From NCBI GenBank assembly GCA_002245135.1, contig NGBS01001185.1, forward strand, positions 1 through 64,000: a stretch of DNA of 64,000 bases. Reading direction: 5' to 3'. This document shows, one piece after another, positions 2,731 through 54,749 of this stretch (its first letter is position 1; each line of letters opens with the position of its first letter). The notes under the pieces are model-generated. The model saw only the letters and a list, made by a program, of their open reading frames with translations, made no database searches and was not told the DNA's origin. Source of the DNA: Proteromonas lacertae. Its lineage: Eukaryota. A program made the translations under genes and the position numbers.

Positions 2731-2885
2731 ACCTTACAAGTTAGGTTATATTGAGGATAAATTCGATTTCACAGAAGGAGGCAATACAGAAAGGATGTCC
2801 TTTCTGTAATTCAGGCTGTATTTATGAAAAACTAAAAGCCAGACATAATAAACTCTAATAATAATAATAATAATAGGTAATATAA

Positions 2886-5800: not shown

Positions 5801-6171
5801 TATCACCTTCTGATAAGGACTTACTCTTGATCATCTCTTCTAAATCTCTTACGTAATATTTTCGAGATATTACCATATATTCACCATCATTATTTATTTG
5901 AACATCATAAGGACAAAAGAAGGAACTACAACAATCTAACAACAACGATTGATTTCATAGAATTTTAATATCTTCTTTTCTTCTACTTCAGTAACATCTA
6001 TAATTTTCATCATCTTAGATTCACTATAATGCTCTACAACCGAATCTATTTCACGAACATTCCTTGTCTTTTTATATCTAATCTATAAAAATAAATTAAC
6101 TAAAATACTTGAGTATTAACCGGTAATATTGAAGAGAGGTTTGTATTTAAAAATGAAATAAAATTAATCAT
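2886..6171 (-). pseudogene. Pseudokinase-LRR family copy 1 (several frameshifts: pseudogene or consensus errors)
   Basis: Kinase fold (VVGNLKSSN, KLCDL, WSIGCILYEM) followed by RI-type LRRs (LxLxxNxIGDxGLxxL). Phase-1 short introns at the same sites as paralogs. Frame breaks near 5950, 5640, 5580, 4950 and 3960. Confidence 0.8.
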
Positions 6172-6324: not shown

Positions 6325-7257
6325 ATGATAAAAGATGATTTGCTGTTGATGAATAGTATAAAAGAGAAAGCAGTAGAATATTTGAAGATAGAGAATATGT
6401 TAGAAGACAAAGAATTAACAGATCCTTCAAGTGAATATTATAATAAACCTGAAGAATATGGAATGAAAAAATTTGCATTTTATTTATGTGAAGAATGTAA
6501 AAAGCCATATTATGCTGGATTAGCTGCTTGTGGAGATGGAAATGTACAACAACAACAACCTCCACCACAACAACAATTTCCATTTCGAAGACATCCAGGA
6601 AGAAAAAGATATCCTAAAAGACCTGCAATTAGAAATCTTCCACCTCCACCTCCACCACCACCTCCTCCTTCAGGAAGACATCTTCCCCTTCCACCAGAAA
6701 TGAATATACCTCAACCACTTCCACTTCCACCTCCAGTTCAAAATGATTATGATTATGATTATGATTATGATGAGTATGAAGAAGAATCTGATGATGATGA
6801 TGCTGATATTTTTGGTTTTAATCATCATGAACAAAGAATAGATATGAATATGATTATTCCAGATGTAAAAGTAGATGATAATAGAAAACTATGTAGTATG
6901 TTATATTCATGTTTATATTATATATTTTGAATAGATAAGTGTAGATATAAGAATTCAAAAATCAAACCATGTGATATTCATGGATTTGAATATGCAGTTT
7001 TTAAATGTCGATATTGTTGTAATCCAAGTGTTTGGTTTTGTTTTGGAACAACTCATTTTTGTGAAGAATGTCATAATATTCATAATGCAATACAGAATAA
7101 GGTATAGTATTGTTGATTATTATATAATTAGCCATTGAATGAACTTCCAAAATGTTTAGGTAAAGGTAAATGTCCAAGTGGTGGAAATCACCCACAAAAT
7201 GGAGTAGAACACTATTTAGGTTGTAGTGTATGTTTAGCAAATGCTGCAAAGATGTGA
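6325..7257 (+). pseudogene. 5'-truncated duplicate of the MYCBP2-type tandem-cysteine domain exons
   Basis: Same sequence as the 3' part of the gene at 9317-11496 (FYLCEECKKPYYAG...KCRYCC...WFCFGTTHFC...LGCSVC). RING and upstream parts are missing. Confidence 0.8.
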
Positions 7258-7468
7258 TTAAAATTAAAATAAATTATCTAATATTGGTTATATGCTACTT
7301 TTATTCTTTTACTGTAAAAAACATAACAAAAAACTAGTCATGTCATATTTAGAGAATTTAAGAAGACAGCTTAGTAGTGAACTAAGTATAATCGATATTC
7401 TATTGTATAAAACAGAAAAGGGGGATTGTGCAGATAAAGATCTGATATTAGCTCTTCAATATGGTATT
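6325..7468 (+). repeat. Left arm of 1144-bp inverted duplication (partner 9106-10249)
   Basis: Reverse complement of 9106-10249. Identical ORF translations except SSELS vs SSILS. Confidence 0.95.
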
Positions 7469-9234
7469 TCATCAACTGGAGGTTCTCCACATTCAGCCAA
7501 ACCAGCATAATATGGTTTATGACATTCATCACATAAATAAAATGCAAATTTCTTTAAACCATATTCTTCAGGTTTATTATAAAATTCACTTGAAGGATTT
7601 GTCAATTCTTTATCATTCATCATATTTTCTACTTTTATATAACTCAAACAAGCTCTTTTCACTGTATCTAATAGTTTTAATTCAGGATGGATTATCTCAT
7701 TTATTGAAGGATGTTCCATTATTTTTCTACATTGAGGACATTCTAAATAACCAAATGATATTCGAATACCACTCCATTTATTCTTTATCTTTTCTATTAC
7801 ACAATTATAATGGAATATATGACCACATTTTAATATAATACAAGGAGAATCACTCAATCCTTCACTATAACAAATAGTACAATATTCATTTCCATCTATT
7901 TTATTACTATCACTACATTTAGGGTTGAAACAAGGAAGACAAGGTGAATGAAGAAGTCCACAACAATAATGACCACATTTAAGCTTCTTTTGACATCCAA
8001 TAACAAGTTTATTATAACAATCTTCATCACTACAAACATCACAGTTTCTTATTGCATTGAGTTTCTTATGACAATATCTACATTTTTTGATTCTTAAAAA
8101 TACATTATATTCTTCACATGTTTTACCTAAATGGAATGGAATTTTACTACAATTTCTACACCATATTGTTCTATTGTTCATTATATATATATATATATAT
8201 ACTCACATTTACTACATCTTACTCTATATTTATCTCTAGCTTGAATTTGCTTTAATGTTATTACATTTCCTTCATCATCTTTTTCTCCTGTTATTTGTTT
8301 ATGCACTTCACCTACTTCAATCTATTCATTATATATAAAATAATGAAATATACATAAAATATCAATTTACAATTTGGACATTCAGCTAAATCTCCATTTT
8401 CTAATAATGGAGCTAAATTCATTTTCTTTTCATTCTTCTCAAATATATTTTTTAATTGTTTATCTCCATTACATTGCGATTGTATTAATTTAAATGGTTT
8501 ATTGCATTTTGGACATATATATTCACTACTTTCATTATTCTCTAATTCTAATATGAAATGTTTGAAACATTTCTTGCACATTATATGACCACATTGTAAC
8601 TCTACAGACTTAAGCGTTTGAGGTTCTTCAGCACGAATTGAACATAAAACAAACTCTTTATGAATGAATGAAACATTGAATAGGTTTGTTTCACTTTTCT
8701 GTGATTCAAGTTGTGATAATTTCTTTTCAATATAAGATTGATTAGCTTTCAACTCATTATCTGTAATTATTTCGCAATTAACAGCCCATTTGTCAAGCTG
8801 AAAGTAAAATATACAATAACCATCTGGACATTTATAGCCCATAGTTTCTAGGCCAATATTGCGTATATACTCTGATAAACACTCACTACAGAACACATGA
8901 TTACAATTCTATGTCATAATGCTGAAATAAATATACCAATTGTATTGTATTTATCGAATCAGCTATTTTATTACATATTGAACATCTAATATTCTCTCTA
9001 CATAAAAAAGTTGTTTTAATCACAGAATTATTATCTAGTGAGAATGATTCTACTGCATCACCTATCAATATATTTTTCAAATATACTGTTACCATTATTA
9101 TACTCAATACCATATTGAAGAGCTAATATCAGATCTTTATCTGCACAATCCCCCTTTTCTGTTTTATACAATAGAATATCGATTATACTTAGTATACTAC
9201 TAAGCTGTCTTCTTAAATTCTCTAAATATGACAT
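7456..9234 (-). CDS. RING-RING-IBR + MYCBP2-like RING E3 ligase paralog A, C-terminally truncated
   Basis: Spliced model from MSYLENLRR: two C3HC4-like RINGs, IBR (CPNC...CSKC..WCRNCSKIPFHLGKTC), MYCBP2-like CTICYSEGLSDSPCIILKCGHIFH...KWSGIRISFGYLECPQC. Ends just after YAGLAECG at the inverted-repeat junction. Confidence 0.8.
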
Positions 9235-10249
9235 GACTAGTTTTTTGTTATGTTTTTTACAGTAAAAGAATAAAAGTAGCATATAACCAATATTAGATAA
9301 TTTATTTTAATTTTAATCACATCTTTGCAGCATTTGCTAAACATACACTACAACCTAAATAGTGTTCTACTCCATTTTGTGGGTGATTTCCACCACTTGG
9401 ACATTTACCTTTACCTAAACATTTTGGAAGTTCATTCAATGGCTAATTATATAATAATCAACAATACTATACCTTATTCTGTATTGCATTATGAATATTA
9501 TGACATTCTTCACAAAAATGAGTTGTTCCAAAACAAAACCAAACACTTGGATTACAACAATATCGACATTTAAAAACTGCATATTCAAATCCATGAATAT
9601 CACATGGTTTGATTTTTGAATTCTTATATCTACACTTATCTATTCAAAATATATAATATAAACATGAATATAACATACTACATAGTTTTCTATTATCATC
9701 TACTTTTACATCTGGAATAATCATATTCATATCTATTCTTTGTTCATGATGATTAAAACCAAAAATATCAGCATCATCATCATCAGATTCTTCTTCATAC
9801 TCATCATAATCATAATCATAATCATAATCATTTTGAACTGGAGGTGGAAGTGGAAGTGGTTGAGGTATATTCATTTCTGGTGGAAGGGGAAGATGTCTTC
9901 CTGAAGGAGGAGGTGGTGGTGGAGGTGGAGGTGGAAGATTTCTAATTGCAGGTCTTTTAGGATATCTTTTTCTTCCTGGATGTCTTCGAAATGGAAATTG
10001 TTGTTGTGGTGGAGGTTGTTGTTGTTGTACATTTCCATCTCCACAAGCAGCTAATCCAGCATAATATGGCTTTTTACATTCTTCACATAAATAAAATGCA
10101 AATTTTTTCATTCCATATTCTTCAGGTTTATTATAATATTCACTTGAAGGATCTGTTAATTCTTTGTCTTCTAACATATTCTCTATCTTCAAATATTCTA
10201 CTGCTTTCTCTTTTATACTATTCATCAACAGCAAATCATCTTTTATCAT
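9106..10249 (-). repeat. Right arm (probable source) of 1144-bp inverted duplication
   Basis: Covers the 3' end of paralog B, the intergenic region and the 5' end of paralog A. Confidence 0.95.
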
Positions 10250-11496
10250 ATCAGAAATACGCTCATGATTCATTATCTATTTCAATATACAAACATAATA
10301 TATATACTTTGTCACATAAAGGACAGTTCAAATATTTAAAGGAGATTCGATTGCCTGTCCAACGACTTTTTATTCGTTCGATTATACAATCATAATGAAA
10401 TATATGACCACATGCTAACTCTATACAAGGACTTTGACATAAACTTTCACTCCAACAAATATTACAAAAATCTTCACTAATACTTTCGATTGATGAGTCA
10501 ATATGATCTACACAGCCTTCCATCAAACAAGGAAGACATTTACTTTTATTTATTCCAAAACAACGATGACCACATTTCAATATCTTTTTACAGCATAAAT
10601 CATCTTTCTCTTTACATTCACTTCTTTCACAGATATCAATTTCACTTTCTTGATCTTCTAATATATTCTTACAATATCGACATTTTCTCATCTTTAAATA
10701 TTTATCATATTCTTCACATGTTTTACCTAAATGATATGGAATCACTTTACATTTTATACACCAATTCGTTCTATTATAAATAAAACATAAACAAATATTA
10801 TACTCACATCTTATACATCTAACTCTATATCGATCTCGATGTTGAATTGATTCTAAATTCATCACATTTCCTTCATTATCTGTCTCACCAGTTATTTCAT
10901 TATGAATTTCACCTTCTTCTAAGATAAAACAACATTTACATGTCTCATTAGGACAATAATACAATGTTTCATCAGGAAGTATTTGCTTTAGTTTGAATAA
11001 TTCATTCTCACTTAATTCTTCTTCTTTTAATACTCTATTTGAAACTAGCCATCTATCTAACTCAAATATTACATCACAATCTTTACAAGCACATTTATAA
11101 TCACTATGATTTAAACCAATCTCTTTTATATATTTAGATAAACATGATTTACAAAAACGATGTGAACAGTTCTATTAAACATACATTTCATAATAAAATA
11201 AATCATACAGGTAACTCCACTGCTTCACTTTCTTCTGGAATTGATTTACATATATTACATATAACAAGTCTTTTAACAAAATCTTCATCATTTTGATCAT
11301 CGGCTATATCTATCACTTCTTTACGTTCTTCAGAGCTTCTTTCATCCATATCACTTTCATCTGAATCATCAATAATTATGTAAGGAGGAGTTGTGTCTTT
11401 GATTGGCTTTTCTTCTTTATCTATTTCATCTATAGATAGCTGCAGAATACGTTGCTCATATTCATCTGTATCTATAACATTATCTACGCTATTCAT
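9317..11496 (-). CDS. RING1-IBR fused to MYCBP2/PHR-type RING-Cys-relay E3 ligase, paralog B (complete)
   Basis: Spliced: CNIC...CSHRFCKSC...CKDC RING, IBR (CPNETC..CIRC..WCIKCKVIPYHLGKTC), RING (CNICWSESLCQSPCIELACGHIFH), then the TC domain YAGLAAC...FKCRYCCNPSVWFCFGTTHFCEECH...HPQNG..LGCSVC, recognisably the MYCBP2 C-terminus. Confidence 0.88.
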
Positions 11497-11714: not shown

Positions 11715-14700
11715 ATGTCTTCTCCTAAAAGAAAGAGTATATAAGAATATTTAATATCACAATAGGAGAAGAAGATAATTCAGTTATAGATGCAACAGAT
11801 AAACAAATTCAAAGTGTAAGAATTTTCCCAAATCTAGAGGTTGCTGAAATTATCTTTCTTCATTCAAATGTACTCACAGTTATCAATCCATTAATAGTTT
11901 GTACACATTTAAGAAAGCTAGATCTTGCTTTTAACTCTATAGTCACTATTCCCCCATATACATTTTGGGAACAGTTATCAGCTCTTCAAATACTTTATTT
12001 ACATCACAATAAGATAAATGATTGGTCCAATTTAGAGTCTTTAAAGCCATGTACGAAGCTGCTATATTTAACCATGTATGATAATCCTATTTGTAAATAT
12101 GATACATTGAGACATTTTGTAGTGAATGCAATACCGTCATTAATTGCTTATGACAATTATATAATCTCAGATGAAGAGTGTGTTGAAGGTATGACTTATT
12201 CACCTCCATTTAATGCATTTAACGACAAATTTCTGTTACCACCACCTCAATATCGTGCCAATGTTGGTGCAAAAGCTCACAAATATGCATTGAAGAATGA
12301 AATTAGATTATTGCTGTACAAACGTTCTAGATTATCTCCAATACTAATATTGCAACGATATTGGCGTGGATATAAAGTAAGAGCTGGATTTAGAAAGATT
12401 AATAGAATTCGTAAGTTAGGAGCAGTAAAATTCCAATCACTGTGGAGAGGATATTATAAAAGAAAATGTTTGAAGCAGCAGCTGAAGGAATATCTTGATA
12501 GAACAGGTCAATCAGAGTTATTGCTAAATGAGTCAGAAAGAATGATAGTAAAAGCGGTAAAATACTTGCAGAATAAATACCGTAGTATATTAAGAGCTAG
12601 AGCGATGACAAAGTTGTTATTTATCACACAAAAGCTATTTATGAAATATAGAAGGATTTGTAAAACTTGGAGCAATTTTTTCGAATCTTTAGGAGCACCC
12701 ATTTTATATTTTCCTCAAAAATCGTATGATATGTTATTGGATTTAATCAGTAAAGTAATACCAAAAACAATAACAGATTATAATTGTAAATCAAAAGTGA
12801 AATTATCAAAATATTTAATAAGAAATGATTGGGATGTTAATTATGAAGATGATGAGATTCAAAATACAAATACAAAGGGACAAGTGTATTTCTGTATTCC
12901 TGACAGTATATTGGAGAGAATGAAAACATGTGGCAATAAAAGTAAGAAAATGTTTGCTAATTTCTATGGTAGAAAATATCCAGCTATTTATAGTATGAAA
13001 AATAACGAAATTAATAAGAATATTGATATATTTAAACCACTGGTATATATATATTATATATAAATACACTTTTTTTGTATTTTTTTGTATTTCATGTATT
13101 TATATGTATAAATAGATGCAATATGCTTCAAACAATGTTAAACATATTATTTATAATAATTTAATCTCCCCAAGATGTTCACACAAATATAACACCAAAG
13201 CTAAATCAAATCCAAAATCCAAATCAGAAAAATCAGAGTTATTTATACCATTATATCAAATAGAATTACCTAATAATGAAATATTATCAAAACTAATGAG
13301 AATATTGTATCGTTACCCAGAATTCCCTCGATCAGGTATTTTACACCAATGGCAATTACAACAGATATATAATGTTACAAAAATCCAATCAGTGTTTAGA
13401 TCCTATGAAAGACGATATGTTGTAGCAGGAACAATTATTGAAAAAATGATTGAAACACGAGCAGTGGTGTTAATACAAAGATGGTATAGAATCTGTGGTT
13501 TAAGGAAAAAACTTACATTGCATATTATATTAAAACAATATTTAGAAATCCTTCGAGAAAATGCAAGTAAAAAATTATACATCAACAGGAAACAGTATCG
13601 ATATTTAACTGAAGCAAATTTCACCAATCAAATTGAGATGGATTCTCAAGCTAATAATATGTTAGTTACATTTAATGAGAATAATCGTGCAATTATTATA
13701 CATTATCGTAGTAATCCATATGTCCCAATAATTCCACTGTGGATGAATGCAGTAAATTATGGTCCTGGGAAAATACCTGTTTATCAAGGGAAAGAAATAT
13801 TCCAACCATTGTTATTTCGAGGATGTAAAACTCAATTGAGAAATAGAAATAATTTTGAACCACTTTCTAATATTTTAAATCATAATCATCATAATAATAA
13901 TGAAGAAGAAGAAGAAGAAGCAATGGAATTTGTAGAAATTGAATTTCCATCTATTACTGAAGCCATTGCAAGGTGTATGATAATATGTTCATTAACATGG
14001 ACTCATAAATATAAAGATTTTGCTCCACTTTATCCTATTGAAGTATTGAAAGATATGAAAATTATTAAAAGTGTTTATCTACAGAGATTATATACTTGTC
14101 CATCAGCATGGTTGAATAGAATATGTTATGGTATTTATCCTGTTAAAGAAAATAATAATAATCGTAAAAGTAAAGTGATTGTAGATATTCCAACTACTTC
14201 GATCACTACAACAAAATCTAAATCAGTACCATCATCACCTATTAAACAACAACAACAACAAATAACATCTGTTAAAAGTAATACAACCAATACAAATACA
14301 AATACAATTAATACAAATACACCTAATACAGATGTTAATACAATCAATACATCTTCACTGTTAATCCCTTCATCTCCTCGTCCTGTAATAAACCGTCCAA
14401 CAACACCATCACCTTCTTATAAATCTTATAGAAAATATAAAAATAAACAAAACATAAAAACTCCTCCAATTTCATTAAATGTTGAAGGAATAGATATGAT
14501 CAGATCTTCTCAAAAACAAACTCATTCTCAACACAAACCAAAGGAGAGATACTTGATAGAAAAAGATGAAATAGTAAATACAGTAAGAATGGAACATATG
14601 GAAGTCAATAATCGAATTATATATAATAATAATAAACAAATGCAAGAGAAATTAAAACTAAAAAGATCAGTTGTTGATAAAAACATTAAAAGAGAAAGAT

Positions 14701-15356
14701 TGAAGAATTTTAGAAGATTTTTAGATGGTGCTTATGCTGAACCTTCCTATCCCAATGAAACAGTAGAAAGACAGAATTATAACAATGATTTAATGACTGT
14801 AGCAAAGACTCAATATATACGAGAAGAATTGAATAACAATAAAGCAATCTTATTGGATGAAAAAGAGGAGTATTTAAATGCATTGAAAGATCATTTAAAT
14901 GATGAAAGAAATAAAATTAATAAATTAAGAAAGGAAGCAGATGAGAATGAAGAAGATATGATGAATAGAATTCAAATGCAAAAGAATAAAAACAGGATTA
15001 AGCAAGTGAGAGAGAAGAATAATAGATTAATAGCTTTAGAAATAAATAGAAGGCAAAGACAATATGTAAGGACAGTTACTCAGAACAATATAAGAACTTT
15101 GAAAGAAAATAGGTTAATTGAGATACAACAACAAACTGCTGAGAGAAAAGCCATAGAGGAAGAAGAAAAGAACATGGTGCACGATGCTCTGTATGAGAAA
15201 TATGAATCGTTGAGAGAAAGAGTGAGAACTCAAAAGAGTATGATTGATAAAGAGATAGCTGAAAGTAAAGCTATAGATCCACATATATCTGTATCTATAA
15301 AGAGGAAACAACCACCTTATACCCATCGAATAATTAAAGATCCCAATTCAGAGTGA
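11715..15356 (+). CDS. LRRIQ3: Leucine-rich repeat and IQ-motif protein (LRRIQ3-like) with coiled-coil C-terminus
   Basis: Spliced N-terminus LRKLDLAFN...FWEQLSALQILYLHHN...LTMYDNP...RHFVVN...YIISDEE resembles LRRIQ3. IQ motifs LQRYWRGYKVR, FQSLWRGYYKR, IQSVFRSY. Introns at about 11737-11765 and 13043-13115. Confidence 0.75.
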
Positions 15357-16791: not shown

Positions 16792-17906
16792 ATGGAATTA
16801 AGAGTCGGGAAGAAGTATAAATTAGGCAAGAAAATCGGGAGTGGTGCATTTGGTGAAATTTATCAAGGTACTAATGTTACGACTCGTATTTTCGGTGTAT
16901 ATTTATTAAATAATAGATGAGGAAGTAGCTATCAAGCTTGAACTAAGCAGGACAAGATATCCCCAACTATTTTATGAATCTAAGTTATATCGCATATTTC
17001 AAGGAGGTGTAGGTATTCCATTTGTTCGTTGGTATGGAGTGGAAGGCAACTATAATGTGATGGTGATGGATTTACTTGGACCTTCACTTGAAGACTTATT
17101 TAACTATTGTAATCGAAAATTCAGCTTAAAATGTGTGTGTATGATAGCTGATGCCTGTATTAGTCGTATTGAACACATTCATTCGAAAGGATTTATTCAT
17201 CGAGATATAAAACCCGATAATTTTGTAATTGGCTTAGGTTTAAGAGCCAAAATAATTCATATAATCGATTTTGGTTTAGCGAAAAGATACCGAAACCCCA
17301 AAACTCACACTCATATTCCTTATAGAGAAAATAAACATTTAACTGGAACACCAAGATATGCTTCATTAAATAATCATTTAGGAATCGAACAATCGAGAAG
17401 AGATGATTTAGAATCATTAGGTTTTGTATTATTATATTTTTTGAGAGGATCATTGCCATGGCAAGGACTAGCTGCAACTATATCTTTTTTTTTTAAATTA
17501 ATTAAATTCAAAAAGAATATTTTATTTTCTTTAATTTATAATGTAAAATAAGAAACAAAAGTATCAGAGAATTATGGAAAAGAAAATTCATGTAACATTT
17601 GAAGAATTATGCAGAGGATTTCCAAACGAATTAAGAACTTACTTCGAATACTGTCGAGCCTTAAGATTTGATGATAAGCCTGATTATTACTATTTAAAGA
17701 ATTTATTCAAAGATATAATGGCTAGAGAAGGATATATGAACGATGGATTCTTCGATTGGTTTGATCCTTCTGTAGCTCATAGTCCTAAGTATTTACCAAG
17801 TCATTGTCCAGATATGAAAGACATTTTAAAGGCTGCTCCATACACCAGTGAAGTTCCAAGTGATATTCCACCTCCAATAGATGATGATGATACTACAGCT
17901 ACATAA
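16792..17906 (+). CDS. CK1: Casein kinase 1
   Basis: [69 protein letters not shown]. One GT-AG intron and one non-canonical intron (17480-17546). Confidence 0.97.
17480..17546 (+). other. Putative U12-like intron with AT-AA termini (67 nt) in CK1
   Basis: Removal restores WQGLAATNKKQKY at the conserved CK1 spacing. Donor ATATCTTT, branch-like TTTTCTTTAAT at 17525-17535, ends TGTAA. Confidence 0.75.
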
Positions 17907-18159
17907 TTATTATTATAATTATTAAATAAAAATAAATATATAACATATATATAATAAATAACCTCTAAAGATACATCAATATATTCTTTACATAAATTAG
18001 AAAAATATAAATAATAAAAAAAATAACTTTTACTAACTATATTATTATTATTATTATTATAAATATGTTTTTATGTAAAGATAAACAAAAATTTGACCAA
18101 TTAATAAAATAAATTCGTTTCATTCGTTTTTGGTTTTAAAAATTGAATAAGAGAGTTAG

Positions 18160-19579
18160 ATGTTATCTATCAAAATATTAAAAGAAATAAGTGAATCACA
18201 TGAAGATTTTGAATTTGATGTTGTGAAAAGTAATGAAGAAGAGAAAGCTATTAGTGAGAGTGAGACGAGGTATATGATTATAGTATTATAAATTATATAG
18301 ATTACAGACTGATGTGAAATATTTCCCAAATATCAAATCTCTAGGTGGTTATAGTCAGTATTTAGGTGATTTAAAGGGAAATAATGATGAAGCTCAAGGA
18401 TTGTATGAAAAAGTATATTGTAGAGTATATATATATGAAATAGATGGAAGAGTTAAGACCATGTGAAGAAGAGAAATTGTCATATTCACTTTATTTAACG
18501 TTTTATGGATCCTTTTTAATGGAAACTACCAAAGAATATGAGAAAGCTGAAGATTTGTATATTTTCTATTTATATAATTTAATAGATTCAAAAAATCTAT
18601 AGAAATTTATCCAAATAATCCAATAGCTGTAGGCAATTTAGCCTATTTATATCACTACAAGATAAGAGATTATAATCAAGCAGAAGAATACTATTTAAAA
18701 TCAATATCTCAATTTCCAACTCAATCTTCAATATTATTAAAATATGCAATATTTCTAAAACAGGTCAGGAAAAATTATACTAAAGCAGAAGAATACTTTA
18801 AATTGGTATAAATTTATAGTAAATTTATAGTTAATTAGGCGATTGAAAATGATCCTGAGAATGCAGACTGTTTAGGTCATTATGCAGTCTATTTACACTC
18901 AATAAAACACGACTATATCAATGCAGAATCATTATATTTGAAATCCGTAAAAATAGACAATCAGAACATCAACAATTTATGTAATTATGGATTATTACTA
19001 GCCGAAGTAAAGAAACAATATGATGAAGCTGAATTCTACTATAAATCCGCTTTAAAAATCAATCCACATCATATAAACACATTATACAATTATGCAGTAT
19101 TATGCCATTCATCTAAAAGGAATTATAAATTGGCAGAACAGTTGTATAAGAAAGTAATAGAACTAAATCCAAAACATGGATATGCTTTGTATAATTTAGC
19201 TACAATAGAAGAAGATAAAAATCAGAATCATAAAATTGCAGGTTATTTGTTTAAGAAAGCATTGGAAATACTACCAAATGATATATCATTATTTTTTTCT
19301 ATTATTTTTTTGTTTTGTAGTTTTTTCTTTAATTGTTTTTTCTTTTTTAACCTTTAGTATGTGGAGATTATGCAAATCATTTAAGAATTGTATATATTAT
19401 CTATTTATTTATTTATTTATAGTATGATCATGATATTAAACAATCTCAAAAGCTCTTTGAAAGATCAATTAAAACTCTCAATAACAATATAACAATCTTA
19501 TTTAATTATTCATTGTTATTATATTGCGATTTACATGATTATATTCAATCAGTTCATTATTTACATCAAATATTAGTAG

Positions 19580-19611
<32 letters not shown>

Positions 19612-20216
19612 GTGTTCATAGTTAAATCCTTCATTTATTCCAGCAATTTCACTTTTAGCTATTTATTATAGTGATATAGTGAGAGATTATGACAAAGCTG
19701 AAGAATTCTTTATAAATGGATTAAAGAAGAACAGTTCAAATTCAACTTTATATTTGAATTATGCTGACTTTCTATTAGATATAAGAGGAAATCCAAGTGA
19801 TGCTACAGTATACTATGAAAGAGCACTTCATTTTGATAAGAATAATATTTATGCCATTCACAATTACAGTGAATTTCTGTTGAAAGAGAATAGAAACGTA
19901 GAGAAAGCAAATGAGTTGATTAAATATGGTTTGAAGATAAGTAATCATAATGAGTTACTATTGAGTTTATATGCTAAAGTATATATCTATATATATGTTG
20001 ATATTATATGAATAGATGCAATATTTGAACTATAATGACCCATTTACAGCCGAACAGTATTTCAAGAAAGCTTTAAAATACAACCCTACTAGTCCAATAG
20101 TATGCCAAAGATACAGTAAGTTTTTGAAGGATATAAAACAAGATGAAGAAGAATCTAGCAAATACGACAAGATGGCGAAAAGTAGTTTAAGATTTGAATT
20201 AAAAAAGTTATATTAA
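18160..20216 (+). CDS. Multi-TPR repeat protein
   Basis: Repeated TPR units (YA..L....dy.kAE.yykkAl...P) across many short introns. Confidence 0.88.
19283..19350 (+). other. Putative U12-like intron with AT-AA termini (68 nt) in the TPR gene
   Basis: Removal gives LEILPND|PLVCGDYA, matching the spacing of YPNNPIAVGNLA in the same protein. Donor ATATCATT, branch-like TTTTCTTTAAT at 19323-19333. Confidence 0.65.
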
Positions 20217-20708
20217 TTGTTTTTTGTTTATATAATTGTTGATGTTGTTGTTATTTGAGTTTTAGAACAGAATTAAAACAATCGGATGATTGAACCGATT
20301 GTTTGTTATTTCATCTTTTAAATAATTAATTAGATGGTCATATAATCATATGTTATTACTTTTTCAGGAGGACATTTTTTTAGAACGGCTGTTCAAATTT
20401 TTAACACCCTATTTCTAGTGGCGTTACAGCCTTTATATTAAATTTCTTCAAGATATAGATAAGTAATTAAGAGTTTCTGAAACTATCTGTGAATTTCGTT
20501 TACTTATGATTAATTCATTTTGACATTAGTTTTAAAATTGATGTCCAAACAAAAGTGCATAATATCTGCATTTAGGACCTCCAATTATTTTCGTAATAAT
20601 ATGTTTATTTAATGAAAAAATAAACAAAACATTTTCACAAAGCAAACCTCAAGTTTGAATGATTTTAAATTTTTTATTTTTTAAGCTCCTTATTTAATAG
20701 ATGAATAA

Positions 20709-21165
20709 GAAATATTATTATGTGGTTTTATGATTAATATACAAAGACAGAGTGGTGCTAGAATTAAAATATAGTGAATATGTTACATATTAGAAGTGAT
20801 CTCAAAGAGAAGTCCAAAAAATGAATTAGAAATATTATTATGTGGTTTTATGATTAATATACAAAGACAGAGTGGTGCTAGAATTAAAATATAGTGAATA
20901 TGTTACATATTAGAAGTGATCTCAAAGAGAAGTCCAAAAAATGAATTAGAAATATTATTATGTGGTTTTATGATTAATATATTATTAACAAAGACAGAGT
21001 GGTGCTAGAATTAAGAATAAATATAGTGAATATGTTACATATTAGAAGTGATCTCAAAGAGAAGTCCAAAAAATGAATTAGAAATATTATTATGTGGTTT
21101 TATGATTAATATACAAAGACACAGTGGTGCTAGAATTAAATTACAGTAAATGTGTTACATGTTAT
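20709..21165 (+). repeat. 120-bp tandem repeat (about 3.7 copies) inside the left end of the MULE
   Basis: Unit AGAAATATTATTATGTGG...GTCCAAAAAATGAATT starts at about 20709, 20829, 20949 (with small insertions) and 21080. Confidence 0.92.
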
Positions 21166-21946
21166 TTTATGGTTACTAGTCATTATGGATAATTTAATTA
21201 AAATATGAAAGAGAATATTGTTTTTGGTTGTTACAATTAATTTGTATATGTAGATGAAGTAATATACTAACAATGTTGATGATAAGCGTCGAGAATTATA
21301 GCAGAATTAGGAAAGATGTTTGAGAAGAAGATTTATTGGAATTTAAATGGTGAATCTGACCCACTCACTGGCTTTTAGTTATTTAGCAAAGGAAAGAAAA
21401 ATAACAGTAACAACAACTCTAGTAATAAACTTAATAACTTATTCTAATAGCCATTAGATTATTATGAAAATATTTTATAGTTTATTAATAAAAAAGTGTT
21501 AATAAGTGTTTTTAAGCTATGTTAGTTAAAAATTACTTCAAAAGGATTGAAATTGATATTTTAAATACTATGATAATTTGTTACTGTGATATTAATTTCA
21601 TTTAATAATAAATTAGTATTAGAAAAGAAGAGAATATGAGATTATATGATTTATACTTCACAACACCATAAGAATTTAATGAATTAGAATGTGATTAGAG
21701 AAGTGTATTATCAATATAGATAATAAGAAATTGTTATTCAATGAAGATAATAATATCAATAAAACAAAAGAAAATATTAATATATATTATTACAGTTTAT
21801 ATGAAGAATGTAAATACATGATAAAAGAATGAATAAATGATAAAATATTGATAGTATAATGGTATAGTATTTGAATAGATATTCAAGATAAAATGATAAA
21901 ATCGTATAATATAACCAATATACTTATATAATATTATAATTAAAAT

Positions 21947-23598
21947 TTAGTTTAATTTCTTTCTTTTATTCTTCTTTTCGTATGAACATTCAATCCTCTT
22001 TGACATATAAATTGTTCTTTTTGTAGAGATATTATTTATATAGTTTAAAGTAGCATCATCTTGAATTATTTTATATCCTTCCTCAGAATTACTTATGAAT
22101 AAATATATTGCTGTTATTATTATCTCTGATGCTTCTTTTTCAATATTGATATAATCTTTTGCTATGAATTTTTTAAATTCATTTTCTGCTATTTTATCAT
22201 ATATATAATTGATTAGTGATTGGTATATTTCTGTTATTGTATCATCTTTAATACTTTGTAACATAGATGAAAAATATGATTTATGAATAGAAGCTTTTAA
22301 TTTGACAAATTCTTCTTCATCAATGTTTATGTTTTCATAATTAATAATGTTATTATATACCTCTTTTTCATTTAAATTTTTTTCTATACTTTCTGCTACT
22401 TCTGTTGGATAATGAATTTTACTGAAATAACAATCTGTAATTGGTATACTACTAAAAAAGTAACTTTTAAAACACTCGTTGCATATTAATTTATAAGTAT
22501 CCACTTTTATATCAAATTTTACTTTAATATAAAGCATATGCGAACATGGTATTCCTGTTACCATTCTATATCCACAATTACAGCTAATTACATCATTATT
22601 ACAACTTACAATATATTTATCATTCTCATTCTTCAAAATATACTCGCTTTTTTCTTCATTATACCAACATTCATAAATTGAATCGCAAAGAATTGAACTT
22701 TGATAAATGAAATTTGCAGCACATTCATCCCACAGCATCGAGGATATTTCATCTAATTTATCGTTATTAACAGTAATGATTTCATTAATTATTTTATATT
22801 GTTTTTTGTAGATGTCTTCCAATACTGTCAATACTGCATCATATCTGGATCTACGATGTTTAAGTGAACTTTTAATATAATGATTTAATGCTTCAACTGC
22901 GCTAGTGCTATGGCATCCATATATACCCATTTCAGAAACACCATCTTTTGTAAAATACGACTTATATTTATCACTTGTATTTTCTACAATTATTTCTCTT
23001 TGCAGTGGATTGGTTATATAATTATATAAAATACTTTTTAATGCTTTATCTCGAATATATATTAGAAAGTGGCATATAAAACGGCAAGCTCTTTGTCATG
23101 TATAACACTTACTATATTGCCGTTTGTATTAAGTTTTTGATATATAAAAAGATATGTGGATTTGTCTTTTTTTCTAGTTATTGCAAAAGCAACTAACAAT
23201 AACTTGTGTGGTGCTATTTGCATATACACTAGATACAGTTGCATATTATTCAAAAATACATTGAAAGTTCCATCACAAACCAAAGTCGAATATTTTTGCA
23301 CCCTTTCTTGGTCCATAATAACTAAAACTGTATCTTGATTTTTGTATACAGTATATTTTTGTTCAACATTAAAGAAAAATCTTCGCATCCCTTCTTCTTC
23401 ATTTCTTAATTCTTTTTTGAAATTAATAACTTTTGTTTTTATCTGCTTTTCTACATTATTAGTTATTCTATATCTATCCTTAACTGTTTTAATAATATTT
23501 GGCAATAATGATTTTGTGTTCTTAGCCATTGAAATTACTTCATTTTCAATATCATTAGTCAATTTATAAATTGTTCTTTTATCTATAATTCTATTCAA
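21947..23598 (-). pseudogene. MULE transposase with SWIM zinc finger, interrupted
   Basis: CDGTF (D1), VIHDKE (D2), STSAVEALN (E), SWIM CNCGYRMVTGIPCSH. Stop at 23062 and no C/DxxH motif seen. Confidence 0.85.
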
Positions 23599-24447
23599 CT
23601 TATGATTGTGAGATTTAAATTCTACTATTATTTCTTTAGTATAATCAACCTTAACACAAAAATTACAGCTTTATTTCAAAAACAAACAACAAAACTAGTA
23701 GAAATGCAATTCTTAATCAACCAAAATTTCCCCCAAATACCCCTTTATTTTATTATTAAAAAAGAATTATTGAGGATAATCTATCAACACTATGTAGTAT
23801 TCTATACAAGAAGAAAAATAAATATGTGTATAAATAGCACATCTAAGATCTGTCTAAAAGAACATCTTCACTATATTTTAATTCTAGCACCACTCTGTCT
23901 TTGTATATTAATCATAAAACCACATAATAATATTTCTTATTCATCTATTAAATAAGGAGCTTAAAAAATAAAAAATTTAAAATCATTCAAACTTAAGGTT
24001 TGCTTTGTGAAAATGTTTTGTTTATTTTTTCATTAAATAAACATATTATTACGAAAATAATTGGAGGTCCTAAATGCAGATATTATGCACTTTTGTTTGG
24101 ACATCAATTTTAAAACTAATGTCAAAATGAATTAATCATAAGTAAACGAAATTCACAGATAGTTTCAGAAACTCTTAATTACTTATCTATATCTTGAAGA
24201 AATTTAATATAAAGGCTGTAACGCCACTAGAAATAGGGTGTTAAAAATTTGAACAGCCGTTCTAAAAAAATGTCCTCCTTTTTCAGATATAATATAAATA
24301 CTAATATCCAAAATTTTTTGGATATAACATACAGTTTTGATATTGAAAAAAAAACATATGATTTAAATGATAGTTATTAATAATCATATCAATTGAAGGT
24401 TTTAGACACAAAGATATTCCAGTCTTTTTAATAGCATTATTTATTCT

Positions 24448-24690
24448 TTAATAATTGTCAAGCGAACTGATGCATTTGTTTAATATTCTATTTTTATAGT
24501 AAAGTTTTAGGGAAGCTATAGTGCCTTGATCCAAAGGTTGTAAAAATGAAGTAGAATTTGGAGGAAGATATAATATATCAACATTTTTATAATTTGAAAT
24601 ACGAGGATAACCAGAAAAATTATCCATTATTAGTAGAATTCTTTGATTTTTATATTGTTCAGGTATATTAAGAATTAAATATATTTTAAT
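24448..24690 (-). pseudogene. pogo/Tigger-type DDE_1 transposase fragment
   Basis: ILLIMDNFSGY...ILYLPPNSTSFLQPLDQGTIASLK, the typical pogo-family motif. Confidence 0.85.
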
Positions 24691-25118
24691 ATCCTTTTTC
24701 AATTTAAAAATGTATTTTGGAACACCATATTCTATAACACTTCAATGTCACATATTAAGAAAAATTAGAATCAATATTTTGAATTAACTACTTCAATTGA
24801 TATGTGTTTGTTTAGGATCTAACTTAACATAATTAAAAAAACTCTTTAGTTACAAAATAAAACAGACAAATATATATTAATAATAATAACTCATAAAAAT
24901 GAGAATATAACATATATATACTAATTAGCGTATTTATATTCGCATTTTTAAAAAAAATAAAAATCAAGCCTTCAAGCTTTTTCTTCTTTTTCTTTTTTGA
25001 TTTTGCAAAACACCAGAGAAATATTTGTTAATAAATGTATCTCAAAAAGTTGATCAATATTCAAACATACAAAATAAACAATACAAAGAAAATTGTTGAA
25101 ATTATTGTAAGTAATTAC

Positions 25119-25861: not shown

Positions 25862-28800
25862 ATGTTTTTGAGAAATTCTTCGGAAGATGATGTGTTATCC
25901 TCATTATTACCTTCTGATATAAAAGTATATTAGTAAATATTATTTTATAGATAAAAGATAGGGTTGAAAAGAGTAATTCTGAGATAGTTTTTGTCACATA
26001 TCATCAAATTGATATGAAAAGGAGCAAATTAATAGATGTTAGTGGAGTGAAAGAGAAGAATATATTCAGATTCTTAGATAATAACTGTTTATTAGGTGAT
26101 TGTTTCTGTTTTGTATTTACATTTCAAATACATGTTTTCGGGTGTAATGTGATGATAATAGAAAGAATGTACTATATGAGAGATTTAGAAGAGATTATTA
26201 AGAGTGAGAGAATATCAAATGATGATATTTTGAGTTTATTATGTGGATTATGTAATATTACGATGATATTATATGAAAATGGTATAGTAGTTGAGAATAT
26301 GAAGAGTAGTAATGTAATATATGAAAGTGATAATAATGTAAAGTTATGTGATTTATTCTTGAATGAATTGAGAAATGAAGAAGATATGAAGATTTACGAT
26401 GTGTGTTTCAAAAGTCCAGAAGAGTTGAATGGTTTAGAATATAATGATCGAAGTGTGATTTGGTCAATTGGTTGTATATTATATGAAATGATTTGTAAGA
26501 AATTAGCATTTGATGAAGATAGGAATATGTTTAAAACTCTAGTAAATATATTATTGTGCAAATATAATAGAGAGTTAATAAAAGATGGTATAATGAAAGA
26601 AATGATTGATAGAATGTTAAAAGTGAGAAATGAAGATAGATTGAGTTTAAAAGAATTGAGAAAAGAAATGATAAAGATGAGTGAAATGTTGAAAGATGAT
26701 GATAATAATTTAGTGATAGTAAGAGAAAGAAAAGAAATGTTATTGAATAATGATTTAGAATTAGAAATATCACCATTTAATATTCAAGCAGAATATTATC
26801 TCCAATATAATAAAAGGGAAGATATTCGAGATAGATTAATAGAGTGTTATAATGTTAAGTTAAATGAAAGAGTATTATCAGTGTTAATAATGATGAAATT
26901 AAATAAAAAAGATCAATCAATAAAGAAAAAAATGAAATTTCAAATTTCTCACCAGTATGATGTAGATATAGAATTTTACTTAGATGAACTGATATTTAAT
27001 ATATATATAGATGATAAAGAAAGATTGGCAATTAGACCAAATTGTTTATGCTATTGTAAGGAAGGAATGAATTATTTCTTCAGAATATTGAAACTGATTA
27101 ATCCAATATATCTGTGGTTCACTGATATTAGTAGAATCATAATTCAGAATCAACCATTATTTGCAACATATTTTAATCAATTATCAAATTTGCAGCATTT
27201 ATTTTTTAGGACATGTAATCTTACTGCTGATTTCATTGAATCATTTGTTAAATCAATTCCATTAATGATGAAACTGAAATACATATATATTGAAAGTACT
27301 TTAAGTATTTATTATAATAAAATAGGTAATCCAATTGGCTTAAAAGGCTTCAAATTGTTACTTCCATATTTACATTTTTTAATCAACAAAGACAACGAAT
27401 TGAATATTAGAAAAATGAATTTAAATGATGAATCAATGATATTTTTATCAGAAGAATTATATAAATATCCACGACTTAAGAAGATAGATATTAGAGACAA
27501 CAATGGCATTCATTCAATCGGATTAAAATTCTTATTTTGTAAATTCCCTATTTCAAAAATATCATTTGATTTTAATGGAAGTAAAGAATTATTGATAGAT
27601 AAAGACATTCCTGAATTACTTGGTTCAATCAACTTACTTTATTCTTTACATTTAAATGAATTAAAAATTGATGATAAAATTTTCAAATCGTTTATTTCAT
27701 TAAGAAGAAATGAATTTAAAGAAATGAAAAAGTTAGATTTGTGTAGTATAATATGTTATTTTTCTATTATTTAGATAATAAACTAACATACAGAAGCGTA
27801 AGATTACTGATTAAGAATATGTTTTTATTTTCAAATCTTACATATCTATGCTTGCGTGGGAATGGAATTGGAGATGAAGGAATGAAAATATTATCTTCCC
27901 ATTTATATATACTCAAAGATGATGACAATTCACTTGATTTTTCAAGTATAATAATAATCGTTTATAATATAATAGACATGGGATTATCTTCAATTGGGCT
28001 AAAATATGTATTAGATGGTTTAAAGAATACTGATGAAGATATAAAACTGAATGTAAGTGAAAATAATATCGATTCAATTGGAGTAGAATATCTGATGAAA
28101 TATCTAAAAGAAAATGATAGTATTGAAAGATTATCCATTCACAGTATATATTTTGTTTTAATTATGTGTTTAATAGATAATCCAATTGGTAATGTTGGAT
28201 TTAGATTGTTATTGAAGAATTTTGATTTGTTAATAAATGATGATAATGAGATAAATTTGAATAATGTCTCAATAGATGATGAAAGTGTTTTATTATTAGT
28301 AAATAAACTAGATTCATTAGAAGGATGTAAGACAATACATCTAAAAGGAAATAATATCAGAATGAAAGGGATAAAATCAATCTGTTCAAAATCATTAGAA
28401 AGAGATGAATATCCATTTATTGAAATGAAATGTTCATCATGGACAAATGAAGAATTGGAATATTATTTGAATTATTGTATTAAAAAGAAAAGAAATGATG
28501 ATAAGAATTATGATTTATCAAGTATAAATTATTATTCATGTATAATGAAATAGATGTGAATATTAATGATGATGATATTTCCTTGATTAAGCAGATAGAT
28601 TATAGAATAGTTGATTTATCGAATAATCATATAAGCTTTAAAGGATTTAACGAATTAATGAATTCATTGTCAAAAAATATACATAATATTGTAATTAATA
28701 ATAATGAAATTGGAGATGAAGGAATAGAGATAATATGTAAATATTTAGATATATTTGTCAAAAATGATAATATGAGTAATACATCATTATTAAATCTTTC

Positions 28801-29143
28801 AAGTATTATATTAAGATAATATAATTTAATAATTTGAATAGATATTGGAATGAGTAAAAAGGGATTAAAAATGTTAATAGAAAGATTAAACAAATATAAA
28901 CTATTAGAAAAGATGGATATATCAGGAAATGAATTAGATGAAAGAGAATTAAGATTAATGAGAAAGAATAAAATAATATTTGAGATATTAAAAGAAATAT
29001 CAATAACAATGACAGAAAATATAGATCAATCAAAATTAAAATCATTTTTATATACATTTTCATCAATTGGGAGAATCAAATTAAATGGAATATCAGAAGA
29101 AGAAGAAAAAGAATTATCAAATCAATTCTTTAACATTGAATAA
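25862..29143 (+). CDS. Pseudokinase-LRR family copy 2 (apparently intact)
   Basis: MFLRNSSEDD.. exon, intron 25925-25950, kinase fold (VVENMKSSN, KLCDL, FKSPEEL, WSIGCILYEM), then LRR exons separated by phase-1 introns at 27296-27325, 27746-27774, 27946-27975, 28144-28176, 28522-28553, 28803-28841. Confidence 0.9.
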
Positions 29144-29214
29144 TAAATTACTCTATTATACTTATTATGTATTTGATAATGTTATGTTGTTTTTTGTTCA
29201 TGAGACATAAACAT

Positions 29215-29508
29215 AAGGAATTGTGTTAAACATTCTTGAATAGTGACTAAAGTAAACAAATTTATATCCATTCTATGCAGCATAATTAGCTCTACACACT
29301 CTCCTAATCTAAACAATAGAAGATTAATAATACAGTTTTTATTGAAGTAAAATAATTCATTTAATTATTTGAAACGGATAAGATTTAGAAACATCAAACT
29401 TAAGCTTGAAAATGTTTTTGAGAAATTCTTCGGAAGATGATGTGTTATCCTCATTATTACCTTCTGATATAAAAGTATATTAGTAAATATTATTTTATAG
29501 ATAAAAGA
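29215..29508 (+). repeat. Direct duplicate of 25665-25958 (GrpE 5' fragment + kinase-LRR exon 1 and intron 1)
   Basis: Near-identical sequence at a constant offset of 3550 bp. Confidence 0.92.
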
Positions 29509-32243
29509 AAGAAACGAAAAGAGCGTAAATGAAGTTGATCTTGTTGTAGAACATGAAAGTGATGTGAAGATGATAAAAATCTTGAATGCATGTTGTATAG
29601 ATGATAATAAAATATTAAAGTTCTGTGAAAATAACAGCTTGTTGTCAGATTATTGCTCCTTTTTATGTTATCCATTAGATGTTCAAATGCTCGGATATAA
29701 TATGATTGTGTTAGAAAGAATGTACTATATGAGAGATTTAGAAGAGATTATTAAGAGTGAGAGAATATCCAATGCTGAAATCTGTAGTGTGATATGTGGA
29801 TTATGTAATCTTATGATGATATTAAATGAAAATGGTATAGTAGTTGATAATTTGAAGAGTAGTAATGTAATATATGAAAATTATGATGAAATAAAGTTAT
29901 GTGATTTATACTTGAATATGTTGAGAAAAAAAGATGAATTGAGAGTGTATGATATCTGCTTCAAAAGTCCAGAAGAGTTGAGTGGATTAGAATATAATGA
30001 TCGAAGTGTGATTTGGTCAATTGGATGTATATTATATGAAATGATTTGTAAGAAATTAGCATTTAATGAAGATAATAATATGGATAAAACCAAAGATAAT
30101 ATTGTGAGAGGTGAATTTAGTGTTGATGTAGAATGTGATGAATTGATGAAAGAGATGATACACAGAATGTTAATAGTGAAAAATGAAGATAGATTGAGTT
30201 TAACTGAGTTAAGAAAAGAAATGATAAAGATGAATAAAAAATTAAAAGATGAAGAAGATAATGTGATGATATGTGAAGAAAGAAAGGAAATAGTGTGCAA
30301 TAATGATTATGTGATAGTAATGTGCCCAATTGTAACTTTTAAATCAAAATATTATGTGGAGCTGAACAAAAGAGAAAGTATATATAATGTGTTAGTAATA
30401 TTATTGAATAGAAATTCAAGAATATTTGATAAGATTATACAATAGAAAAGCAGATGAAAGAATCATGTCAATATTGTTGATGATGAAAGTATGTAAAGGA
30501 GATAATTCAATAAAAGATAAAGTGAAATTTCAGATTGGTCATAAATGTAAAGATAATAGAGGTTGTTATTTAGATGAAAAGATATTTAATATTTATAAAG
30601 TCAGATGTGATAAAGAAATAATCAAAATTGACATAGGATGTGTATGTATTTGTGAAGAAGGAATGGATTATTTCTTCAGAATATTGAAATTGATTAATCC
30701 AACAAAATTGAGATTTGGTATAATTGATATTGTTATTATTTCTTTAGGTGATTATGGATTTAATATTCCAAGCCAATATCAACATTATTTGTATCATTAT
30801 TATCTGAAATACCAAATGTACAAGAATTATATTTAATATCCTGCAATTTAAGTAGTTATTTCATTGAATCCTTGATAAGTGCAATTCCATATATGAAAGT
30901 GAAATATATAGATCTTCGCTGTATTTATATTTCTTATATTATATTGAAATAGGTAATGCGATAGGTGAAAACGGTTTGAAAATATTGCTTCCATATTTAC
31001 ATTTATTAATTAACAATAGAAATGAATTATATCTAACTGGAATGAATTTGAATGATGAATCAATGATGTTATTATCATCAGAATTATATAAATATCCAAA
31101 TGTCAAGAAAATCGATATTAGATGTAATAATGTTTATTCGAAAGGATTAAAATCCTTGTTTTCTCAATTTCCTATATCCAAAATAGACTTTGATTTTAAT
31201 GAAAGTAAAGAATTACTGATAGACAAAGACATTCCCGAATTAGTAGAATACATCAAAGATCATAATTACTTAAATTTGAGTAATTCAGAAATAGATGATA
31301 ATATTTTAAAATCATTCATCTCTTTAAGATTGAATGAGTTGAGAGGAATAGAAAAGTTAGATTTGAGTAGTATAATAGTATAATATTATTGTTTTATTTA
31401 GATAATAAATTGACAGATAAAAGTATGGAAGTACTGATTAACAATCTGTGTTCATTCTGGTGTATTTATCACATTCAATTGAATGGAAACTTGATAGGAG
31501 ATAAAGGAATGAAAATATTATCTTCCCATTTATATATACTCAAAGATGATGATAATTCACTTGATTTTTCAAGTATAATAATAATCGTTTATAATATAAT
31601 AGACATGGGATTATCTTCAATTGGGTTAAAATATGTATTAGATGGTTTAAAGAATACTGATGAAGATATAAAACTGAATGTAAGTGAAAATAATATTGAT
31701 TCAATTGGAGTAGAATATCTGATGAAATATCTAAAAGAAAATGATAATATTGAAAGATTATCCATTCACAGTATATATTTTGTTTTAATTATGTGTTTAA
31801 TAGATAATCCAATTGGTAATGTTGGATTTAGATTGTTATTGAAGAATTTTGATTTGTTAATAAATGATGATAATGAGATAAACTTGAGTAAAATATCAAT
31901 AGATGATGAAAGTGCTTTATTATTAACAAAAGAAATACATCATAGTGGGAGATGTAAAACAATAAATCTAAAAGGAAATAATATCAGAATGAAAGGGATA
32001 AAATCAATATGTTCAAAATCATTAGAAAATAAATATTATCCCTTAATAGAAATGAAATGTTCATTATGGACAAATGAAGAAATGAAATACTATTTGAATT
32101 ATTGTAGAAAGAATAAAGTAAAATATTCTTGGATACTTTTACTAAGCTTACATGAACAAATAATGTTATTCTTGTCAGAACTAATGCTAATGTTATTACC
32201 AGTAGTAGCACTTTATCAAAGACTTATGAAAGAAGATATTTAA
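29412..32243 (+). CDS. Pseudokinase-LRR family copy 3 (last LRR exons replaced by an unrelated tail; 1-nt frameshift near 30783)
   Basis: VVDNLKSSN kinase fold plus LRR exons. Near-identical to the inverted copy at 45709-48460. Confidence 0.82.
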
Positions 32244-34553: not shown

Positions 34554-34929
34554 TTGATTGTATTGTTATTATAATTAATTTTCTATTGATGTATTTGTCT
34601 ATTTAATAGTAAAATAATGAAAAACAAAGAAATCAAAACGAATATATTTTTGATATTTAATCAAACTATCAAATCAAGCTTAATAATGTTTTAAATTTAT
34701 GTTAGTATTGCGTAATGCAGAAGTAGTTTAGAAGTGTATTACAGCTTATTTGAGATAATAAATTCAAAGAAAGATTATTATATAATAGAATTATAGATAT
34801 AAATAGAATGTTACTCAGAGAATATTATATGAAGGTTATTTAGTAATGAATTCTGTTAATTATGAAAATGCATAGATAGTCAAAATCATACTAAATGAAT
34901 GTATTTTACGAAATACAGAACAACTCTCC

Positions 34930-35637
34930 TCTCCATTTGAACATTTAAGTGTATGGACAGAAGTGTTACAAGATACAATGTTAGATTTATTCGATTGTGG
35001 AAAATTAGACTGTGCTTCAGCAGTATCTTTATCCTTATCTCCAAAAGGATTCGAAAGATTCTATGCGAATTTACCAAAATATGAAAAGAAAATAATCTTA
35101 AGACCTCAAGCAATAGCTAACCATGCTGAATGTGTTCGAAGACTAGGAGTAATAGCAATGAATACTCCATTAGAAGTAGATATCTATGCTCATGCAAACA
35201 GTAGTTTAATAGGTGGAACTCGAATGGTAAATGGTTTAGGAGGTTCAGGTGATTTCTTACGTAATTCTTATCTATCAATAATGCATACTCCGTCAGTACG
35301 AAAATCTAAGAATGATCCTCATGGTATCAGTTGTATAGTTCCAATGTGTTCTCATATTGACCATACAGAGCATGATTTAGATGTAATCGTCACTGAACAA
35401 GGTGTAGCTGATTGTCGAGGTTTAGGTCCACGACAGAGAGCAAAAGAAATCATCAGCCATTGTGCTCATCCTGAGTATAAAGAACAATTGTTAGAATATT
35501 ACAATATGGCTGAGAAAGATTGTTGTAGTAAAGGAATTGGTCATGAGCCAGTATTATTTGATTTGGTTCATAAAATGCATTTGAATTTGAGTAAGAATGG
35601 AACAATGAAATTGAAAAGTTGGAGTGATAAAGTTTAA
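34930..35637 (+). pseudogene. 5'-truncated duplicate of acetate:succinate CoA-transferase
   Basis: Reverse complement of 48667-49374. About 290 N-terminal codons are missing. Confidence 0.9.
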
Positions 35638-45585: not shown

Positions 45586-45708
45586 TGTAATATATCTGCA
45601 TATATGTATAGGATATAATATAATTTAAAATATTTAAATACATTTTATATGATTATAATATAATCATGATTGTTTTTATTTATATTATAAAAAATATAAT
45701 ATTAATAA

Positions 45709-51199: not shown

Positions 51200-54749
<3,550 letters not shown>

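Follow-up and report, generated by a model that had tools for sequence, protein, structure and literature searches.

Two predicted AT-AA introns with U12-like signals in adjacent genes of an A+T-rich, probable Blastocystis relative

The DNA analysed here, a stretch of 64 kb referred to as the window, is eukaryotic and has a GC content of about 25%. Two adjacent genes on its forward strand, coding for casein kinase 1 (CK1) and a TPR-repeat protein, each contain one interruption that differs from the ordinary introns of the window (Table 1). The first-pass annotation had read both interruptions as U12-like introns with AT-AA ends. On re-reading of the sequence, the coordinates, the lengths of 67 and 68 nt, the ATATC(T/A)TT starts, the shared TTTTCTTTAATT string and the AA ends were all found as it had given them.

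Table 1. Positions of the two genes, their interruptions and the putative splicing signals in the window
Feature	Position	Strand	Description
CK1 gene	16792..17906	+	3 exons: 16792-16885, 16917-17479, 17547-17906
Ordinary GT-AG intron of CK1	16886..16916	+	31 nt
Minor-like intron of CK1	17480..17546	+	67 nt, predicted AT-AA, phase 0, ends GTAA
CK1 intron donor ATATCTTT	17480..17487	+	7/8 vs ATATCCTT; +6 = T
CK1 branch-like motif TTTTCTTTAATT	17525..17536	+	As at 17533-17534; 12 nt to end
TPR-repeat protein gene	18160..20216	+	9 exons; 7 ordinary GT-AG introns, 29-43 nt
Minor-like intron of TPR gene	19283..19350	+	68 nt, predicted AT-AA, phase 0, ends TTAA
TPR intron donor ATATCATT	19283..19290	+	7/8 match; +6 = A
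TPR branch-like motif TTTTCTTTAATT	19323..19334	+	As at 19331-19332; 18 nt to end

The remainder of the window contains several other recognizable features. An expanded gene family with kinase-like and leucine-rich-repeat-like (LRR-like) domains, named from the translations, occupies 2741-6171, 25862-32243, 35772-39233 and 45709-48532 in direct and inverted copies, some of them frameshifted. Genes resembling RING-finger ubiquitin ligases (6325-11496) include a 1144-nt inverted duplicate of 99.8% identity and are followed by the gene of an LRR and IQ protein of 1179 residues (11715-15356, +). The transposon-like region 20366-24900 carries the remnant of a DDE_1 endonuclease (24448-24741, -), a second, transposase-like frame without a Pfam match (21947-23670), a 429-nt inverted repeat pair (20366-20794 and 23853-24279) and tandem repeats of about 120 nt (20701-21164). 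A gene of the acetyl-CoA hydrolase family, similar to acetate:succinate CoA-transferase (ASCT; 48667-50241, -), is intronless, groups with proteins of anaerobic protists and has a near-identical partial inverted copy at 34808-35637 (+). The ABCC-type ABC transporter gene at 50977-54749 (+) is interrupted by an in-frame stop and by frameshifts, lacks part of its sequence and is likely a pseudogene. A retinoblastoma-like gene is located at 57577-60932 (+; Pfam RB_B, E=4e-21), the 3' end of its model being uncertain.

The reference set of major introns comprises 73 GT-AG introns, kept by hand from the output of a gene finder after antisense shadow models and doubtful gene ends had been dropped. 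The gene finder was trained on 31 open reading frames, three of which had the wrong strand; the models taken forward from its output were checked to have open frames. The major introns are short, as had been stated before: their median length is 32 nt and 70 of the 73 fall between 25 and 43 nt. They are also very uniform, with 72 starting GTAT, all 73 ending TAG and about 3% C. Neither interruption has the GT or GC donor, the TAG acceptor or the length of 25-43 nt that characterize a U2-type intron of this genome.

The minor-intron consensus is RTATCCTT for the donor and TTCCTTRAC for the branch site (10.1101/2020.10.12.336362). Both interruptions have the ATATC core within their ATATC(T/A)TT starts and both contain the branch-like motif TTCTTTAAT, which agrees with a TTCCTTRAC-like sequence in seven of nine positions, both changes being C to T. 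All departures from the minor consensus in the two introns are C to T or A, which is the direction of the genome bias. Among the 73 major introns of the window, none starts with GTATC, none contains CTTTAAY and none has C at +5 after GTAT. Of 219 RTATC sites in sense or intergenic positions, only those of the two interruptions are inside a gene with intron-like DNA downstream; further introns beginning with ATATC in the gene-finder output were rejected as antisense shadow models, as involving a stop codon (15356) or as degraded copies. When the two introns were each shuffled 5000 times, the motif TTCYTTAAY, picked for this test after the data had been seen, fell within the final 30 nt in 45 and 55 cases (about 1% each). 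A scan of the 64-kb window against Rfam gave no matches.

The 12-mer TTTTCTTTAATT occurs three times on both strands of the window, and two of these occurrences are in the two introns. As proof of common origin it was rejected: a common substring of at least 12 nt was found in 593 of 5000 shuffle pairs and is not significant. An introner origin was also discarded, as the longest shared string, 12 nt, is not above shuffles and the flanks, ACT/AAT and GAT/CCT, have no direct repeat.

Splicing depends on the branch-to-acceptor distance, for which 11-13 nt is optimal; introns with non-canonical ends can be spliced, although in many cases at lower efficiency (PMC3584512). The branch-like As are at -14/-13 from the intron end in CK1 and at -20/-19 in the TPR gene, in keeping with the 12-19 nt reported in the first-pass annotation. 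Counted from the second A to the end, the distance in CK1 is inside the optimum and that in the TPR gene is above it.

When 17480-17546 is removed, the CK1 gene becomes a complete open reading frame of 338 codons and a stop (1017 nt) with no internal stops. Identity to the CK1 homologs is at most 83%. The pattern used for the spacing was matched in 112 of 120 homologs and unmatched in eight; it gave 115 motif matches, and all 115 keep 8 residues between WQGL and the next conserved Y. Removal of the AT-AA intron restores the same spacing, as had been proposed. Among the GT/GC-AG and AT-AN options in CK1 only 17480-17546 and 17482-17548 preserve it; the latter has no ATATC donor, and the former is the better-scoring of the two. 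In comparison with a profile of 103 homologs, the AT-AA product scores 548.0 bits, followed by AT-AT 17480-17549 (545.2 bits, 2.8 lower), AT-AG to 17552 (538.1 bits) and the best GC-AG option, 17474-17552, which is in frame and lacks four residues (532.4 bits). The gene finder, run without homologs, picked the donor at 17480 but put the intron end at 17564. The CK1 intron has no distinct polypyrimidine tract.

The TPR gene without 19283-19350 is likewise a complete open reading frame (583 codons and a stop, 1752 nt, no internal stops). Of 33 homologs tried, 18 span the junction, and in 17 of these the rejoined segment PNDPLVCGDY (pattern DPxDxxxxADYG) aligns gap-free, which bears out the spacing claimed for this gene as well. 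Identity to the TPR matches is at most 53% on the exon and, among the best 12 matches, at most 35% on the spliced protein, and the atlas matches are generic TPR clusters only. The AT-AA junction scores 209.3 bits; AT-AC 19281-19351 scores 205.6 bits and GT-AG 19242-19357, which is in frame and deletes 16 residues, 198.2 bits. All three alternative junctions named in the first-pass annotation, including GC-AG 17474-17552 of CK1, are thus below AT-AA, and its statement that no GT-AG solution preserves either protein holds, the in-frame GC-AG and GT-AG options deleting 4 residues in CK1 and 16 in the TPR protein. The TPR profile is loose, however, so that 19283-19350 is outscored by 18 junctions that are slid along or shifted, among them AT-AT 19301-19368 (213.3 bits), which has no U12-like donor; most of the 18 have the same length of 68 nt and none has an ATATC donor. 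The gene finder picked 19283-19350 without the aid of homologs.

The 3' part of the TPR intron differs from that of CK1 in being a pure pyrimidine run (19336-19348) downstream of the branch motif. A T tract after the branch motif is usually absent from minor introns. There is no other A between the branch motif and 19349, and the AA is therefore the first AN. An AC at 19350-19351 overlaps the AA by one base, and its use would lead to a frameshift and a stop. Both AT-AA introns have T at -3, as do 73 of 73 major introns, whereas the overlapping AC has A at this position.

The spacing of the homologous proteins fixes the intron length and the ATATC donor fixes the register; the AA ends therefore follow, deduced from protein spacing and not from transcripts. 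The CK1 spacing, the profile scores, the TPR alignment and the contrast in motifs make a U12-like intron with AT-AA boundaries the best fit in both genes, and neither intron appears to fail any defining test of the U12 type outright.

The host is likely a relative of Blastocystis, judged from a single gene, with no species indicated. The best named match of the single-exon ASCT gene is from Blastocystis sp. Blastoise (65%). In a midpoint-rooted tree of this one gene with 37 rows, the window sequence groups with two proteins (93% and 81% identity), and this group is the sister of Blastoise plus P0263 with support of 100/99, Cantina marsupialis being outside. The LRR and IQ protein (11715-15356) may resemble the cilia-associated LRRIQ3 and would then favour a flagellated relative over Blastocystis itself. 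A scan for related loci gave two metagenome CK1 loci (L001 and L002, 2271-3246) with 57% GC and 30-nt introns, Blastocystis-like by these features. Their CK1, which is 60% identical and may be a paralog, has no intron at the site of the window's minor intron. A third locus was a spurious match, and the CK1 junction followed by RTATC had no matches in metagenome contigs.

For Blastocystis ST1, the closest relative in which minor introns have been characterized, 346 U12-type introns with ends described as 'typically AT-AC', the four minor snRNAs and seven specific proteins were reported (PMC5608401); a later survey lists 253 minor introns, 77% of them AT-AC and 49% in phase 0 (PMC10639083). Among the 339 ATATCN introns of the ST1 data set (PMC5608401 S11 Data), the donor is ATATCC in 336, ATATCT in three and ATATCA in none. 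The last bases, counted by eye in 136 of the 339, are AC in 80, AG in 49, AT in 4 and AA in 3, one AC row of 140 nt being possibly misannotated. The AA rate is thus 2.2% (95% CI 0.5-6.3%), and one ST1 intron, OAO13901_3, combines a ATATCTTT donor with an AA end (PMC5608401 S11 Data). AT-AG, which makes up 36% of these ST1 introns (49 of 136), is called disfavoured in a review (PMC3584512). Because the ends vary in this manner, the last intron base is already loose in the Blastocystis clade. The ST1 introns ending AA or AT have a GC content of 41% (n=7) compared with 48% in the first 13 rows that end in AC or AG (counted by hand without the last base; one-sided p=0.044), which is a weak hint for drift. 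At the share of minor introns in ST1, the probability of two or more among 75 introns is 0.17.

The two interruptions are probably minor (U12-type) introns with AT-AA ends, in which loosely checked positions would have drifted to A or T in a genome of 25% GC and in a lineage where AT-AA would be frequent. The donor and the branch motif would be recognized by U11/U12, and the 3' cut would be set mainly by the distance from the branch A and by the first suitable (T)AN. In CK1 this would be the (T)AN 12 nt from the branch A; in the TPR gene it would be the A that comes first downstream of the branch motif, at a distance of 18 nt. The last base would be checked only loosely, as in ST1, and strong AT mutation pressure would allow donor +6, the Cs of the branch site and the last base to drift to A or T. 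Such drift of loosely checked positions would make AT-AA frequent among the minor introns of the lineage. The probability of two AA ends is 0.14 if the last base follows the intron composition of the window (38% A).

AT-AN is a recognized subtype of minor introns (PMC8280824), and one survey lists three AT-AA introns in human and four in mouse (PMC1557818 Table 2). The 'atypical class' of the first-pass annotation was therefore an overstatement: ST1 minor introns already end loosely, with AT-AG, AT-AT and AT-AA among them, and AT-AA is not a new class. At ST1 rates, however, AA in both of two introns, accompanied by donor +6 and branch Cs that have likewise changed to A or T, is improbable.

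The drift explanation is weakened in several respects. The evidence consists of two introns, their genes are neighbours, and it was for these introns that the window had been flagged. The profile scores constrain the exact ends less well than the length of the intron. The TPR intron has a branch distance of 18 nt, a T tract, an overlapping AC that splicing would have to ignore and a +6 A that has no precedent in ST1. For the same reasons of number and adjacency, the proposal that AT-AA is common in the lineage stands only in part, the statistics (2 of 2 compared with 3 of 136 in ST1) being in its favour.

A less probable, though still plausible, extension, in line with the divergent minor spliceosome suggested in the first-pass annotation, is that the minor spliceosome itself has changed to one with AT-AA as its main type. 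AA would then be chosen over an overlapping AC, A or T would be accepted at donor +6 and TTCTTTAAT at the branch, and matching changes would be expected in U11, U6atac and U12. C-to-U changes could pair with unchanged snRNAs by G-U wobble and the A at +6 of the TPR donor could not; if the spliceosome has changed, it is this A that hints at it most clearly. Mutational drift with an unchanged spliceosome accounts for most of the changes. If a changed spliceosome were confirmed, this would be the first genome with minor introns mostly ending in AA.

It is unlikely that the introns are ordinary AT-AC minor introns and that a consensus error produced the AA of one or both of them, through AC misread as AA or a dropped C. 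One base change would turn each end into AC, the commonest ST1 end (80 of 136), and the AAC/CC run at 19349-19352 is a candidate spot. Compared with the intact copy, an inverted duplicate at 45680-48491 differs by four single-base indels of a type left by long-read consensus; three of the four lengthen a run, and they could reflect either decay or an unpolished repeat. This explanation needs two independent errors exactly at the acceptor base, however, and leaves the drifted donors and branch motifs unexplained. No frameshift was found in 12 genes with 25,533 coding nt and 126 TAAC[AC] and 7 AACCC contexts, although these genes were picked as intact and a frameshift could be concealed within an intron of their models. 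Two further duplicates are 99.7-99.8% identical and free of gaps.

About equally doubtful is the possibility that the introns are real AT-AA minor introns of a genome where AT-AA is rare, the pair being a coincidence caught by the scan. The sample is two, the window was chosen for the feature, and AA ends are rare in ST1. At the ST1 rate, however, the probability that both of two introns end in AA is 5e-4 (4e-3 at the upper confidence bound), and that of two non-C bases at donor +6 is 8e-5. The same branch variant and the same unusual length in both introns also point to a lineage-wide shift.

Somewhat less credible still is splicing to a different 3' site, for example the AT-AT end at 17549 of CK1, or to a mixture of nearby sites. 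The CK1 score for AT-AT is close to that for AT-AA, the choice of the minor 3' site has been described as error-prone (PMC3584512), and AT-AT ends occur in 4 of 136 ST1 introns. Against this, the CK1 alternative removes a residue from the 8-residue spacing conserved in all 115 matches and is 15 rather than 12 nt from the branch A, and the in-frame alternatives from the TPR donor at 19283 lose at least 6 residues. It is very improbable that the interruptions are introns of the major spliceosome (U2) in which G has changed to A at each end: GTAT...TAG would become ATAT...TAA by one change per end, and human major AT-AC introns exist (PMC8280824), but both interruptions have the +5 C and the branch-like motif seen in 0 of 73 major introns and are 67-68 nt long, whereas 70 of the 73 measure 25-43 nt.

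Most of what is known about the control of the last intron base by the minor spliceosome, and about the extent to which its signals can drift, comes from animals and plants, in which AT-AA is rare. An AT-AA-rich genome, set beside ST1 with its AC and AG ends and 55% GC, would constitute a natural test of whether the last base is near-neutral and tracks mutation bias or is chosen by an altered spliceosome. The drift idea is testable because Blastocystis genomes range from 21 to 55% GC (PMC12129017). Aligners and predictors limited to GT-AG, GC-AG and AT-AC would miss AT-AA introns; in such genomes the number of minor introns may be underestimated and the genes that contain them wrongly modelled. 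The literature searched, from which most subscription papers were absent, yielded neither a lineage dominated by AT-AA nor a description of minor introns from Proteromonas or opalinids.

AT-AA also occurs among the A-type (AT-AN) introns of animals and plants and is the commonest non-canonical end in both kingdoms, but all non-canonical ends jointly amount to about 4% of the minor introns there (PMC10639083), compared with two AA ends out of two here. A lineage-wide change of the minor signals, with YTT donors and a TTTGA branch, has a parallel in Physarum polycephalum, which has many non-canonical ends, 27% of them AT-AA. In Physarum AT-AA is a small minority of 20,899 introns and co-evolution of the U12 snRNA and RNA-seq evidence have been presented (10.1101/2020.10.12.336362), whereas in the window the predicted AT-AA type accounts for all minor-like introns seen. 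The closest likeness is to ST1, which shares the AT-start minor introns, the compact genome, the major introns of about 30 nt, the frequency of phase 0 (49% in ST1, both introns here) and a variable last base that includes AA. The two differ in donor +6, which is C in 336 of 339 ST1 introns and T or A here; in the branch site, mostly CTT(A/C/G)A(C/T) about 6-9 nt from the end by eye in ST1 and TCTTTAAT at 12-18 nt here; in intron length, about 37-44 nt compared with 67-68 nt; and in the AA ends themselves, found in 3 of 136 introns of ST1 and in both introns of the window.
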